Source: a virus. Taken from it: a DNA stretch of 64,000 nucleotides. The number at the start of each line of letters is the position of its first letter. The stretch's first letter is position 1. The notes beneath the pieces were generated by a model that searched no databases, was not told the DNA's origin, and worked only from the letters and a program-made list of their open reading frames with translations. The stretch lies in IMG/VR virus record IMGVR_UViG_3300031578_000004, positions 32,001 through 96,000 of that record; one strand, given 5' to 3'. The translations under genes were made by a program, and so were the position numbers. Of this stretch, positions 21,310 through 25,528 are shown one piece after another.

Positions 21310-22275
21310 TTATAAATAATCCTCAATTTTCTGTTTTGTCTGATACCAATAAGTTTCTCCAGTTTCACCATATCTAAAATATTCATTTATTGCGATATAA
21401 TCTTCTTTCTCTAGTTTATCTTTTCCTAATTCTTCTTTTAATCTCTTAGCATATAAAATTACCCCACTCCACCAAAGATTAGTTATGTTTAAAAATGGTA
21501 AATCCATTAATGTAAATATATTACTCATTCTTCTACTTACAAGTTGTCTAGGTATTTTATCCTCTGTGCTTCGTTTTGTGGCTCTGAAAATGTATCCTGT
21601 GACTTTGAGTGGGAATGATTTTACACGTGCAGTTGGAGAGGGTTCTCCATTATTAACCTCATATCGTTCTTGATTAATCGCATCAGTAATCAATATAATT
21701 GTAGACTCATCTACTTCTAATGTTCTAATGACTTCATCATTTTCATTTCTTAAATCAATCTTTTTAGATATTGTGTGACAATCTTCAATTCTTAAATTTG
21801 ATAATTCTATCACTGTTAATCCTAGTGTAGTTAATTTGATTAGTAACGCATCTTGAGCATTAGCACAAAACTCTATTATGTCATCTAGGTCTGCTTGATT
21901 AGTAATGTGTTTATTGGCTTGCGCTACTTTATTAACATATTTACTATATTGACTTTCTCCACCTCTAAACATTTCAGATACCCAATTAACCTTACTCTTT
22001 ACATAGCCATTTTCCAAACACCATTGTACATATTGTTCAATTATACTTCTTCGTGTAGCAAATCCAATATCAGATTTTGACCTAAAACCTAAAAACATTC
22101 TATCAAAATCTTGAGTATTAAATTCATACATATCTTTTTCAAGTTCAAATTCTGTCTTAGCTGCACTTTGTAAAACATATTTAATATGTTCTTGTGTAGC
22201 TTCGGAATCATATGTCTTAACAAATCGTTCTTTTATTTCATTATTATATAAATCAAATGTTCTCATTTTTCTCAC
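21310..22275 (-). CDS. Catalytically degenerate tyrosine-recombinase-fold protein (SPbeta MrpR/YopR-like repressor)
   Basis: Integrase-like layout, but GLT in place of GxR and TNLWWSG in place of HxLRH; follows a DGQHR gene as yopR follows yopQ. Confidence 0.65.
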   Translation of the reverse strand: MRKMRTFDLYNNEIKERFVKTYDSEATQEHIKYVLQSAAKTEFELEKDMYEFNTQDFDRMFLGFRSKSDIGFATRRSIIEQYVQWCLENGYVKSKVNWVSEMFRGGESQYSKYVNKVAQANKHITNQADLDDIIEFCANAQDALLIKLTTLGLTVIELSNLRIEDCHTISKKIDLRNENDEVIRTLEVDESTIILITDAINQERYEVNNGEPSPTARVKSFPLKVTGYIFRATKRSTEDKIPRQLVSRRMSNIFTLMDLPFLNITNLWWSGVILYAKRLKEELGKDKLEKEDYIAINEYFRYGETGETYWYQTKQKIEDYL

Positions 22276-22281
22276 TCCTTC

Positions 22282-23589
22282 CTAAACAAATTTTCTGAAA
22301 TAGTTAGCTATCTTTTTATAGTTGGTTTTTGATAATTTATGAGTATCAAATTTAAAACTATCAATCCAAATTGAGTTTTCTAAGCTAAAATCTATTTTAG
22401 ATAATATTTCGTTAAGACGAGTTCGCCAATCTGTGTTATCTTTTAATTCTTTAGACAAGGTAATATAACCAATAAAACTGTATTTATGATTCATAAAACT
22501 TTCATTCTTAGTTGTTTTGAAATCTGTAAATATATGAGCTACTTCATTTAAAAATTCTACAATCCATTCGCTTAATACTATTGCATCTCTCTTTGAATTT
22601 GTTTTTTCATTCAATTCATATTCATATTTTAAAGAATTAATAAGTGTCTCAAATGTAGTTAAAGAGTCACCATTAATAATATCTGTATTGTGTACTCCAA
22701 TCTTTCCTCTGAGGTCACTAGAAGGACTTTCATTAACTTTCTTTACTATTATAGTTTCAAGTTGAGTTGTGTCTTTAGATTGAATATAAACCTTACTTAT
22801 CTCATTATGTTCGTTTTCTTGTTTTATATATTGTATTGCTTTATCAGTATCATAATTTCTAATATAAACACCTGTAATATACTCGACATCAGAATTATCA
22901 TTGATAGCTGATAACATTCCCATTGAACGATGCATTCCATCAAGTATATCAAGTTCTCCACTATTAATAGTTAAAGTGTGATTCTTAGCATCATAAACAA
23001 ATTCGTCTGTTCCATCTTGTAATAAATTTAATGTTATATGATTTGTTTCTTGAGTACCATTTAATATATTTTCTTTGATACTTTGTACAGATTCATTGTT
23101 AATGTCAATAATCTCTACAAGTTGGTCACGAAATTTAGTTTGTTTAGTTTGTCTTTGTGTTTCTCTATTATAAGTAACTAGATTTCTTGCCCACCAATTA
23201 TTAACTATCTGACATGGTATTGCTGGAGCATCATATATATCGTCTTTTACCTTAAACACACCTTCAATAACTACAGGGAATCCACCCATTTTTATCTTTT
23301 CTCTTCTATATGAGTTTCCATCTGTTATTTCAGTTTCATTATACCAAGTTGTAGGATTAATAGTGCGTTCATCTGTATTGTCATGAAATAATTTAGTGAG
23401 TAAATATAAAGTAGGATTATCTATTGTCTCAACTGGAATATGACCATCTACTATTCTTAATACATCTCCACTGTAAAATCCTCTTTCGACAAATCCTTCA
23501 GTAACTTTACTTATTACATTTTTATTTGCGTTATACTTTTCAAATATGACCAATAACTCTTTTTCAAGCGTTTTTCTATCCTTTTTCAC
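22282..23589 (-). CDS. DGQHR/DndB-like protein (SPbeta YopQ-like)
   Basis: YN..TQR motif and ILDGMHR. Confidence 0.7.
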   Translation of the reverse strand: MKKDRKTLEKELLVIFEKYNANKNVISKVTEGFVERGFYSGDVLRIVDGHIPVETIDNPTLYLLTKLFHDNTDERTINPTTWYNETEITDGNSYRREKIKMGGFPVVIEGVFKVKDDIYDAPAIPCQIVNNWWARNLVTYNRETQRQTKQTKFRDQLVEIIDINNESVQSIKENILNGTQETNHITLNLLQDGTDEFVYDAKNHTLTINSGELDILDGMHRSMGMLSAINDNSDVEYITGVYIRNYDTDKAIQYIKQENEHNEISKVYIQSKDTTQLETIIVKKVNESPSSDLRGKIGVHNTDIINGDSLTTFETLINSLKYEYELNEKTNSKRDAIVLSEWIVEFLNEVAHIFTDFKTTKNESFMNHKYSFIGYITLSKELKDNTDWRTRLNEILSKIDFSLENSIWIDSFKFDTHKLSKTNYKKIANYFRKFV

Positions 23590-23730
23590 TTAATTCACAC
23601 CCTTTTTATATTTATCATAATTAAATTATAGTATAATTATATCCTTCATGTCAAGCAATTATACTATTCATTATGTATTAATAGGTGTAAACTTTATATT
23701 TATTGTTGGTGCAAATGGAATTTTATAGGT

Positions 23731-24099
23731 TTAAGTTGCAATTGTTTTGTTTTTATGTACGTTTTTATTTATTTTATTGTTTAAATTATTATGTATTGAT
23801 AATTGCTCAAATAACTTATCAATTCTTCTTTCTCCACTTCTACGTCTGTCATAGATTGTTTTAGTATCATGTTTGTTTATGTATTCTATCACTTCATTTA
23901 CATTGATAAATTTGTGGTTGTGCATATGACACATGTGTTTACAAACACCTTTATTTTTATGTTTCAATCTAAAGTGTGTGTCTTCATCTGAAATTATCCA
24001 AGTATTAAGTGCTGTTTCTATGTGGATTTGGTCAGGGTATATTTTATAGTTAATGTTATATCTGTTACATAGGCTTTCGACTCTGTTGATGTCAATCAT
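23731..24099 (-). CDS. Hypothetical His-rich protein
   Basis: 122 aa, GAGGTG RBS. Confidence 0.6.
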   Translation of the reverse strand: MIDINRVESLCNRYNINYKIYPDQIHIETALNTWIISDEDTHFRLKHKNKGVCKHMCHMHNHKFINVNEVIEYINKHDTKTIYDRRRSGERRIDKLFEQLSIHNNLNNKINKNVHKNKTIAT

Positions 24100-24168
24100 A
24101 ATGTTTTCACCTCTGTTTCTTATTTTTTTTAATTAGTTTTATATAGTGTGTATAGAGTTAGAGGGGAC

Positions 24169-24882
24169 TTAAAACCCCTCTAGTTTGATTGGTGTTACCT
24201 TACTATTACTACAGTAGTTATTTACTGCCTGTATTCTACTTCGTAAATTAACGACAATATTTTCATCCTTTATTTTTACAATAGTTTCATCAAGTTGTTT
24301 TATTTGATTTTTTTCTATGTATATTTCACAGAGGGTTTCATAAGCATTATTAAAAAACCACTCTGCATTATTAAAAGAATCATCTTTTGTACTTATTATA
24401 TTATGTACTTCTGTTAAAAGTTCTTTTATCTTTTCATCATCTTTTTCAATCTTTGCTATATTAAAGTCCATATGAATACGTTCATCTTGCATCTTATTGT
24501 TTGTGAAATAGTCACTGCATTGTTTAAAAAACTTTATTGCTTTTTTATCTAATTTCAAAGAATAATAACAATTACCCATTACCCAATTACATTCCATATG
24601 TTCTTTAAAATCATTTGTGTAATTTTTACTTTCAGATACATAACTTAAAGCTTTTTTACATTGACCTTTTTTTCTATAACACATTGCAAGTATTAAATTG
24701 AAAAACCATAAATTATGATTGTCTTCGGGATAATCATTTTTTATCATTATTAATATTTCATCACATTTTTTTATTGCTTCGTCATATCTATCCTTATTTT
24801 TTAATGTAACAACCTCTTCTTGTTCTCTCACAAAATTATCTTTCATCGTGCAATCCTCCATTCTATAAATTTTACATTGCAT
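24169..24882 (-). CDS. TPR-like helical repeat protein
   Basis: LAMCY..G...KAL.Y and MGNCYY....KAI.FF repeats; probable start MKDNF after GGAGG. Confidence 0.65.
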   Translation of the reverse strand: MQCKIYRMEDCTMKDNFVREQEEVVTLKNKDRYDEAIKKCDEILIMIKNDYPEDNHNLWFFNLILAMCYRKKGQCKKALSYVSESKNYTNDFKEHMECNWVMGNCYYSLKLDKKAIKFFKQCSDYFTNNKMQDERIHMDFNIAKIEKDDEKIKELLTEVHNIISTKDDSFNNAEWFFNNAYETLCEIYIEKNQIKQLDETIVKIKDENIVVNLRSRIQAVNNYCSNSKVTPIKLEGF

Positions 24883-25528
24883 TTTGCTTTCTATTATCTG
24901 TAGATATTTTTATAAATGTTTTTTCTTTTAAAACTTTACTGTAATCATATCCATACTGATTGCAATATGATTGTAATTCTTTAACTAGTCTTATATGCAA
25001 TCTTGCATCTTCAGGGTCAAAACCATTTATGTGAGCTTCACACTCTACTTTATTAATCCAATTAACTGTATCCTTTATATATTCTAAATCAATTGTTCCT
25101 GCTTGAATTTTAACTGCTGTGTCAATTTGTTCCATAATATAATTTGAACATCTTCCGACTTTAGATATTATAAGTTTTTTGTCAATTGTGAAAACCTGTT
25201 CCACTAACACTAATGAATCAAATTTAAGTCCTGAATCCTCTAATACTTTTACATGTGTTGGCAGTTTGTTTTTATTAAGATTGGATGTTAATGTTGCTAC
25301 CCATATTGTTGGAGAAAACCTATTATTCACATTATTGCTTAAAACTACGGCTGGTCTAGGTTTTGATTGTATACTGTGGTCTCTACCACTCTTTATTAAT
25401 TGGTCGAAATCTACAAATATTAAATCACCCTTTTTAACTTCTAATAATTTTTGTACTTCATTGATTAGATTCTTGTTTGCTACATTGTATGTAGTATGAC
25501 TGTTAATATTTTGAATGCATGTTGTCAT
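24872..25528 (-). CDS. mazF: MazF/PemK endoribonuclease with C-terminal extension
   Basis: KGDLIFVDF..Q..RPAVVLSN..NRFSPT..T..KLPTHV..DS.VLVEQV.TIDK. Confidence 0.88.
   Translation of the reverse strand: MTTCIQNINSHTTYNVANKNLINEVQKLLEVKKGDLIFVDFDQLIKSGRDHSIQSKPRPAVVLSNNVNNRFSPTIWVATLTSNLNKNKLPTHVKVLEDSGLKFDSLVLVEQVFTIDKKLIISKVGRCSNYIMEQIDTAVKIQAGTIDLEYIKDTVNWINKVECEAHINGFDPEDARLHIRLVKELQSYCNQYGYDYSKVLKEKTFIKISTDNRKQNAM

Follow-up and report, generated by a model that had tools for sequence, protein, structure and literature searches.

A gene for a MazF-type endoribonuclease is fixed ahead of a yopQ-mrpR repressor gene pair in Clostridium phages and phage-plasmids that have diverged deeply. 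The stretch of viral DNA analyzed here (the window, 64,000 nucleotides) comprises bases 32001–96000 of the 130,358-bp IMG/VR record IMGVR_UViG_3300031578_000004, whose estimated completeness is 78%. Within it, five open reading frames (ORFs), all on the minus strand between positions 21310 and 25528, form a cassette that encodes, in order of transcription, a long MazF, a tetratricopeptide repeat (TPR) protein, a small protein that we call ORF122, a YopQ-like protein and an MrpR-like protein. With a probability that we put near 0.45, this cassette may be the sro lysogeny module of SPbeta and phi3T in a clostridial form, carrying its own MazF together with a miniature Rap-like TPR protein as modulator.

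A mazF gene ahead of yopQ and mrpR

The mazF gene (24872..25528, minus strand) encodes 218 amino acids that match phrog_1936 over residues 30–203 and phrog_35650 over residues 22–206. Its MazF/PemK endoribonuclease core (residues 31–148; 25085..25438, minus strand) is defined by PF02452 (PemK_toxin; 83.1 bits against a cut-off of 23.1, residues 32–141) and by alignment with Bacillus EndoA/YdcE, whose structures it matches over residues 29–148 with E values of 2e-20 to 4e-21 (phmmer). Although this core is clearly homologous to B. subtilis MazF (E ~1e-20), the phage protein is longer by about 30 N-terminal residues and by a C-terminal tail of 70 residues (residues 149–218; 24875..25084, minus strand), which is predicted to be helical; a C-terminal extension of about this length had been noted in the initial annotation of the window. 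Arg58 and Thr81 align with Arg25 and Thr48 of B. subtilis MazF, which we take to be its catalytic residues, and are invariant in all five close relatives. Judged by these retained positions, the active site is apparently intact and the phage, as was first proposed, brings its own, apparently active, MazF.

Unlike B. subtilis mazF, which is accompanied by a gene for MazE (YdcD), the phage gene has no MazE-type antitoxin gene directly upstream, where an 85-codon ORF (ORF85) matches no family. The sole PF04014 match in the whole record (30262–30537, 4.7 kb from mazF) was rejected as a MazE antitoxin, as its N domain is of the AbrB/SpoVT type (E 3e-19 to SpoVT), and the earlier statement that no mazE can be recognized therefore stands.

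The two distal genes are those of an SPbeta-type yopQ-yopR (sroE-sroF) locus, as their matches to PF22822, phrog_5732 and phrog_5830 indicate. The YopQ/SroE-like protein, of the DndB fold (22282..23589, minus strand; phrog_5732, 3.8e-70), had been described as a DGQHR protein; its likeness to YopQ/SroE is clear, but it scores 28 bits against the TIGR03187 DGQHR profile, below the cut-off of 58.85, and its motif reads DGMHR. Its gene lies directly upstream of the mrpR-like gene, with a gap of 6 nucleotides (nt). The latter (21310..22275, minus strand) encodes an MrpR/SroF-like repressor of the tyrosine-recombinase fold, with matches to PF22822 (MrpR_N_CB, 67.1 bits), phrog_5830 (3.5e-54) and, by phmmer, PDB entry 9rd5 (4.5e-23) and the YopR/MrpR structures (~2e-6), and with no Phage_integrase match. 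When the phmmer alignment is mapped onto Table 3 of the MrpR paper, the Arg-I position holds Thr154 (G-L-T-x-x-E-L), the His position Thr265 and the Arg-II position Trp268 or Trp269. On this alignment, beyond which the Tyr position lies, the recombinase Arg-His-Arg set is lost, in keeping with the initial description of a recombinase fold devoid of catalytic residues.

The linkage of these genes is conserved. A sister phage, IMGVR_UViG_3300042923_000524 (L003), has the identical five-gene order with different upstream genes, and homology between the two phages begins about 40–50 nt before the mazF ATG. Between the window cassette and L003:7001–11352, identity is 89% for MazF, 70% for ORF122, 68% for the TPR protein, 45% for YopQ and 37% for MrpR, a gradient that fits repressors diverging for immunity next to an effector, MazF, that is conserved, and that suggests heteroimmune repressor alleles. 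At protein identities of 23%–31% to the window, c-st, p1BKT015925, pNPD1_1 and a C. tetani plasmid keep the same order: MazF, zero to two genes, YopQ and YopR/MrpR. The c-st locus consists of CST027 (a long MazF, 29% identical over 193 amino acids including the tail), CST028, CST029 (YopQ, 23% identical) and CST030 (YopR), whereas p1BKT015925 has nothing between MazF and YopQ. Plasmid pNPD1_1 (L017) repeats the full five-gene order at 30% MazF identity, with ParB, MazF188, TPR159, ORF150, a phrog_5732 protein (7e-38) and a phrog_5830 protein (1e-36). The tails of the c-st and pNPD1_1 MazFs are like that of the window MazF, with which they align and share the motif L-x-x-Y-C-x-x-Y, whereas the C. 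tetani plasmid MazF is short (129–142 amino acids) and tail-less, with the linkage kept. Among the 13 records of a plasmid collection that have an MrpR-like match, all six Clostridium ones have a MazF match 2–3 kb upstream on the same strand; a second group comprises five C. botulinum records with a long MazF and an MrpR too diverged for tblastn, of which one, pNPD1_1, was inspected. The initial annotation had made its proposal depend on linkage in relatives, which is thus present in L003, c-st and the Clostridium plasmids.

Other searches delimit the distribution. At the corresponding place phi3T has aimR-aimP-aimX and sroA-D; the MazF gene of phage Perkons lies at a distance of 13 kb. An MrpR alignment scan of genome contigs returned one Mesobacillus locus (L010), and a MazF alignment scan returned one unrelated short MazF from metagenome contigs and the L003 contig alone from viral contigs. 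The long MazFs of human-gut "Bacteriophage sp." (H31, H36) were set aside as a different kind, with Cys-rich tails and recombinase neighbors and without yopQ or mrpR, as was the short MazF of Enterocloster phage CB473P3, which lies among unannotated hypothetical genes, likewise without yopQ or mrpR.

The stretch is present as DNA contigs in three soil-metagenome runs, among which the source sample may be. In two of the three, a single independent contig spans 21200–25734 or 21808–25734, gap-free and with one difference. Since independent contigs agree, the gene order of the cassette, including the junction of the TPR gene and ORF122, is not an assembly artifact of the record.

How does the cassette compare with the sro module (yopMNOPQR) of SPbeta and phi3T? 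In both, an SroF/MrpR-like pseudo-recombinase (phi3T SroF is ~28% identical to the MrpR-like protein of the window) is preceded by an SroE/YopQ-like DndB-fold protein, and in published work MazF-type ribonuclease (RNase) activity is likewise tied to the decision locus. However, SPbeta and phi3T have aimR, aimP and aimX and an adjacent SroD/YopP, all of which the cassette lacks, and they use the MazF of the host, whereas the window phage encodes its own. Neither the phi3T AimR protein nor PF22871 finds a match in the 130-kb record, even at E ≤ 10, and the absence of a visible aimR, first noted near the cassette, thus extends to the whole record. Directly upstream of the sroE-like gene there is no SroD/YopP integrase-like gene; ORF122, the TPR protein and MazF occupy that place. 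The only PF00589 match in the record, at 27331–28260, is XerC/D-like, with all matches below NCBIfam cut-offs. This gene lies 1.8 kb upstream of mazF and ends 3.7 kb upstream of the start of the yopQ-like gene, and its product has only a 31-amino-acid stretch in common with phi3T_95.

The genes themselves are already known, since the c-st annotation names CST027 as MazF-like and CST029 and CST030 as YopQ and YopR homologues. In a full-text literature search, whose scope did not extend to the 2023 sro paper or to supplements of any paper, we found no description of MazF-yopQ-mrpR linkage, and in the literature searched the c-st, p1BKT015925, pNPD1_1 and C. tetani plasmid loci are annotated without a functional study. 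What appears to be new is the conserved coupling of MazF to the repressors, the recurring TPR/ORF122 insert and a candidate propeptide gene in L003.

The TPR protein and a candidate propeptide

The gene that follows mazF (24169..24846, minus strand) encodes a protein of about five TPR units, 225 amino acids long from M13 and 237 if translation begins at 24882. As M13 at 24846 is preceded by a GGAGG site and agrees with the protein-database gene call (225 amino acids), the gene most likely starts there, which leaves 25 nt between it and the mazF stop; on this start, the overlap of 11 nt between the two genes is probably spurious. Although Pfam TPR matches are all sub-threshold (best 26 bits), the AlphaFold model (predicted local distance difference test score, pLDDT, 82) is an 11-helix TPR solenoid with no helix-turn-helix (HTH) or other effector domain; the adjacent TPR gene of the initial annotation is thereby confirmed, with its start moved to 24846.

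Could this protein be a peptide receptor of the RRNPP type? In the model, its solenoid superposes on the peptide-binding domains of the receptors in the Rap-Phr, NprR-NprX, PlcR-PapR and AimR-AimP pairs. Comparison with the peptide-binding TPR parts of RapF, RapH, RapI, NprR, PlcR and phi3T Rap gave Z scores of 16.5–17.6, and generic TPR proteins scored equally, with Z up to 18.7. Since generic TPR proteins score alike (Foldseek, VIA-align), the fold does not decide RRNPP identity. Unlike the members of these pairs, the phage TPR proteins, of 219–225 amino acids, have neither an HTH nor an N-terminal effector domain and no profile likeness to AimR. An alignment scan for TPR relatives returned none from metagenome contigs or the phage collection and only the L003 contig from viral contigs.

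Like the RRNPP pairs, L003 has a small ORF with a signal-peptide-like head and internal repeats directly downstream of its TPR gene and in the same orientation. This ORF (L003:8349–8495) begins 22 nt after the TPR stop behind a GGAGG site and encodes 48 amino acids, which read MKKIALFLTTVAVLAMLVGGMVFA in the signal-peptide-like head and SDVTDPKVAKPVVVSPNSDVTDPR in the hydrophilic tail, the latter with two SDVTDP[K/R] units. By a heuristic of our own, the head has a basic N terminus and a 14-residue hydrophobic stretch. Four small ORFs in the 14.7-kb L003 locus pass a crude signal-peptide filter, of which only this one has a hydrophilic repeat tail. The published signature of RRNPP pairs comprises a TPR receptor of 250–500 amino acids, a directly adjacent propeptide gene of 10–100 amino acids and Sec secretion (PMC10075063), and the L003 pair agrees with its criteria 1 and 5. 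Since position, orientation, size and internal repeats all fit Phr and AimP propeptides, the ORF looks like a propeptide of this type.

In the window, there is no propeptide gene between the TPR gene and ORF122, and neither a similar peptide nor a similar signal-peptide ORF was found elsewhere in the record. The distance from the conserved TPR codons to ORF122 is 135 nt shorter in the window than in L003. A conserved GC-rich hairpin without a T-run (24155..24186, minus strand) follows the TPR gene, with the window TPR stop in its loop; in L003, this hairpin follows the propeptide gene. We consider it about twice as likely that the propeptide gene was lost in the window lineage as that it was gained in L003. 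The initial suggestion that the TPR protein is a signal sensor thus gains from the propeptide-like ORF beside the TPR gene of L003, but the window phage itself has no propeptide gene.

ORF122 (23731..24099, minus strand), which had been listed simply as a small ORF, is a conserved member of the cassette, with five relatives at 60%–78% identity. Its 122-amino-acid product is rich in His and Cys, has a basic tail and matches no family. Similarity to the 150-amino-acid ORF of pNPD1_1 and to CST028 of c-st is weak and positional, and the Atlas search yielded nothing beyond clusters without names and weak leads to proteins with an additional Ada-type zinc-binding domain.

A possible role of the phage-borne MazF in lysogeny control

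If the cassette is a form of the sro module, how might MazF act? Published work on SPbeta and phi3T states that the SroE/YopQ and SroF/MrpR proteins establish and keep lysogeny, that free host MazF favors lysogeny in both phages, and that AimX, YosL, phi3T_93/YopN and YopM, encoded beside sroEF, are MazE mimics or MazE binders; how MazF favors lysogeny in SPbeta-like phages is treated there as an open question. The conserved linkage suggests that clostridial phages bring with them an RNase for which Bacillus phages depend on the host. By internalizing it, they would have made MazF the phage's own RNA-cleaving arm of lysis-lysogeny control. Free phage MazF would then cut phage and host transcripts, favoring lysogeny or keeping the prophage quiet, by analogy with the effect of host MazF on phi3T. 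The TPR protein, with ORF122, could be a lineage-specific modulator of MazF: an effector-less, Rap-like, peptide-sensing receptor that acts on MazF by contact, perhaps via the helical tail. In L003, pairing of the TPR protein with a secreted propeptide containing the two SDVTDP[K/R] units might make the circuit density dependent. In the window phage, which would have lost the propeptide gene through a net shortening of 135 nt, any sensing would be constitutive or directed only at the peptide of relatives.

A more specific version, which we regard as doubtful, is that the TPR protein is a peptide-gated antitoxin that holds MazF inactive, possibly via its tail, and releases it when an SDVTDP-type peptide accumulates. 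If so, the cassette would be a self-contained, arbitrium-like circuit of the "count the neighbors, then go lysogenic" kind without a transcription-factor receptor, and the window phage, its propeptide gene deleted, would be a variant that has naturally lost its signal. Co-folding of two MazF copies with the TPR protein, run without controls, gave a score of 0.00, which speaks neither for nor against binding.

That the locus is an alternative decision circuit, as the initial annotation proposed, is a reasonable hypothesis and not a result: the repressor pair and the linkage argue for it, but the TPR gene is missing from three of the five clostridial lineages that keep MazF-yopQ-yopR. A number of further points weigh against our reading. 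The TPR protein and ORF122 are not found in p1BKT015925 or the C. tetani plasmid, and c-st has instead CST028, which has no similarity to the TPR protein; because the TPR gene is absent from all three, MazF-yopQ-mrpR evidently works without it. The two TPR lineages and the ORF122-type proteins compare weakly, at BLASTP E values of 0.001–0.05 and hhalign probabilities of 11%–29%; between the window and pNPD1_1 lineages the values are 0.001–0.002 and 14%–29%, such that the putative homology of these proteins rests mainly on position. The propeptide is found in L003 only and is missing from the window and pNPD1_1, contact between MazF and the TPR protein is something that we only infer, and comparison of the TPR protein with AimR is insignificant by both BLASTP and hhalign. 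At 225 amino acids in the window and 219 in L003, the TPR proteins also fall short of the 250–500 amino acids of validated RRNPP receptors.

Outside Clostridium, no such linkage was encountered in the loci inspected. Two Bacillus-type IMG/VR loci have integrase-YopQ-MrpR with no MazF among the seven (L008) and five (L009) ORFs scanned, and the two non-Clostridium plasmids inspected, from Thermoanaerobacterium and Paenibacillus, have no adjacent MazF. As the completeness of the record is put at 78%, its missing part could contain an aimR-like gene or a gene for an antitoxin. Furthermore, because a perfect promoter match precedes yopQ and a hairpin follows the TPR gene, mazF-TPR-ORF122 may be a unit apart from yopQ-mrpR. 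The promoter match (23625..23654, minus strand; TTGACA-18-TATAAT, 12 of 12 positions) lies 35 nt upstream of the yopQ-like start, and a second 12/12 match (21210..21237, minus strand) lies just downstream of mrpR; both are no more than matches to the sigma-70 consensus, and promoter-like sites overall are as numerous as expected from shuffles. A repeat search gave no convincing operator common to the mazF, yopQ and post-mrpR leaders.

There is likewise no sign that the cassette spares itself from cleavage at UACAU, the motif of Bacillus MazF. The cassette has 10 such sites against 7.0 expected from shuffles and thus shows no depletion (mazF 1, yopQ 1, mrpR 2, TPR 3, ORF122 3); mazF, yopQ and mrpR combined have 4 against 5.1 expected. 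Enrichment is seen in the early left arm (94 against 63.8) but not in the late genes (72 against 79.5). These counts presume the Bacillus motif for the phage enzyme and, because phage MazF may have another motif, speak neither for nor against a decision circuit.

The main rival to our reading is that MazF, with or without the TPR protein, ORF122 or an unseen antitoxin, is a toxin-antitoxin moron that serves addiction or abortive-infection defense, has no role in the decision and lies beside the repressors merely because this region is expressed in lysogens. The linked relatives are plasmid prophages (139–215-kb records typed as plasmids), and in pNPD1_1 mazF directly follows the ParB gene. PHROGs places these long MazFs in the category "moron, auxiliary metabolic gene and host takeover"; MazF-like genes are also common in unrelated elements, with matches in 85 phage and 159 plasmid records, and the promoter match before yopQ would give that gene a promoter of its own. 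However, neither flank of mazF has an antitoxin gene that is conserved across the five lineages, the window record has no ParB, and none of the seven proteins tested matches a PADLOC defense model. Moreover, the adjacency to yopQ-mrpR is kept at ~30% MazF identity and across changed flanks, and of the five genes compared between the window and L003, mazF is the best conserved. We consider the moron explanation somewhat unlikely.

It is also conceivable, if improbable, that the helical tail is a fused intramolecular antitoxin that auto-inhibits MazF until triggered, with the TPR protein and ORF122 accessory or unrelated. CapRel is a fused toxin-antitoxin sensor of this kind. The tail is present in four of the five clostridial lineages, none of which has a MazE-type gene nearby, and it always occurs on MazF and never clearly alone: an exhaustive phmmer search of 1.84 billion representatives returned three clusters, two on MazF and one a 69-amino-acid piece that begins without Met, and a word-indexed search returned five close MazFs. 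However, the C. tetani plasmid MazF remains linked without a tail, and searches of PDB sequences linked the tail neither to MazE nor to a solved structure other than designed helical repeats; the ESM Atlas gave nothing usable. In an AlphaFold2 monomer model built from a 5-row alignment, helices are predicted at residues 148–167, 176–192 and 196–201 with tail pLDDT ~70, but the overall pLDDT of 41.9 is too low for a fold-back of the tail to be read from the model.

The weakest rival, that the TPR protein, with the L003 propeptide, is a Rap-Phr-like system aimed at the sporulation or competence phosphorelay of the host and lies near mazF incidentally, has in its favor that the modeled fold ties with Rap phosphatases and anti-activators, that the phage has other sporulation-regulator homologues (SpoIIID and the AbrB/SpoVT-type protein) and that phage Rap-Phr systems acting on host pathways are documented, but is very improbable, as the TPR protein lacks the N-terminal helical bundle for Rap targets, aligning only to the TPR part of RapF (residues 137–362), and as MazF, a TPR protein and a small ORF follow one another again in a second lineage, with MazF 30% identical.

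If the cassette is indeed a clostridial sro module with its own MazF, the RNase would belong to the core of such switches rather than being a peculiarity of one host, and the cassette would offer a compact system for studying the link between MazF and lysogeny. The carriage of toxin-converting Clostridium phage-plasmids is unstable. As the cassette occurs on large Clostridium phage-plasmids, including toxin-converting ones, the locus is a candidate determinant of prophage maintenance. If the L003 TPR protein (219 amino acids) and its propeptide are a real pair, they would represent a class of mini-receptors overlooked by the 250–500-amino-acid filter of the published RRNPP detector (PMC10075063).

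The surrounding genes

ORF85 (25628–25885), which the initial annotation named as a possible alternative neutralizer of MazF, is unlikely to be its antitoxin, as it is not upstream of mazF in L003, c-st, pNPD1_1 or the other relatives inspected. In the three soil-metagenome runs, ORF85 occurs at ~10 times the contig depth of the cassette, in many variants and with different flanks beyond 25603 and 25943. It thus has the look of a gene cassette that is shuffled and shared widely, not of a partner dedicated to MazF.

The points at which the flanks of ORF85 change coincide with copies of a repeat element. This palindromic element, ATAGTGACACTAT (repeat family D17), has four matches in the window against 0.12 expected, at 13983–13995, 25919–25931, 26340–26352 and 26684–26696, and a half-copy at 25605–25622. 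The half-copy falls in the mazF leader (25529..25627, minus strand), which also has an AAGGAG ribosome-binding site ~12 nt before the ATG. The element lies within direct repeats of 32–56 nt that precede a succession of small early genes, and could serve as a phage-specific promoter or operator. It also seems to mark the limits at which gene cassettes recombine.

The window has a GC content of ~28%, and its genes run leftward up to ~46 kb and rightward beyond. It encodes an NAD-ligase, a Sak4-like ATPase, an RRXRR-HNH nuclease, YopX, methyltransferases and a head protease, as well as host-like regulators and proteins, namely SpoIIID, the AbrB/SpoVT-type protein, CsrA and flagellin. By this gene content, the uncultured phage would be a large siphophage of the SPbeta/c-st kind, with a spore-forming Firmicute as its host. 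The SpoIIID homologue lies at 28785–29045 (PF12116, 107 bits), and a full-length flagellin gene (Flagellin_N and Flagellin_C; 39129–39998) adjoins the CsrA homologue (40067–40285). Other host-like genes encode an S-adenosylmethionine synthetase (48994–50031), an HslV/proteasome-like peptidase (51750–52337), a DnaJ-domain protein (44094–44711) and a tRNA_anti-like/Sie-like protein (38513–38968).

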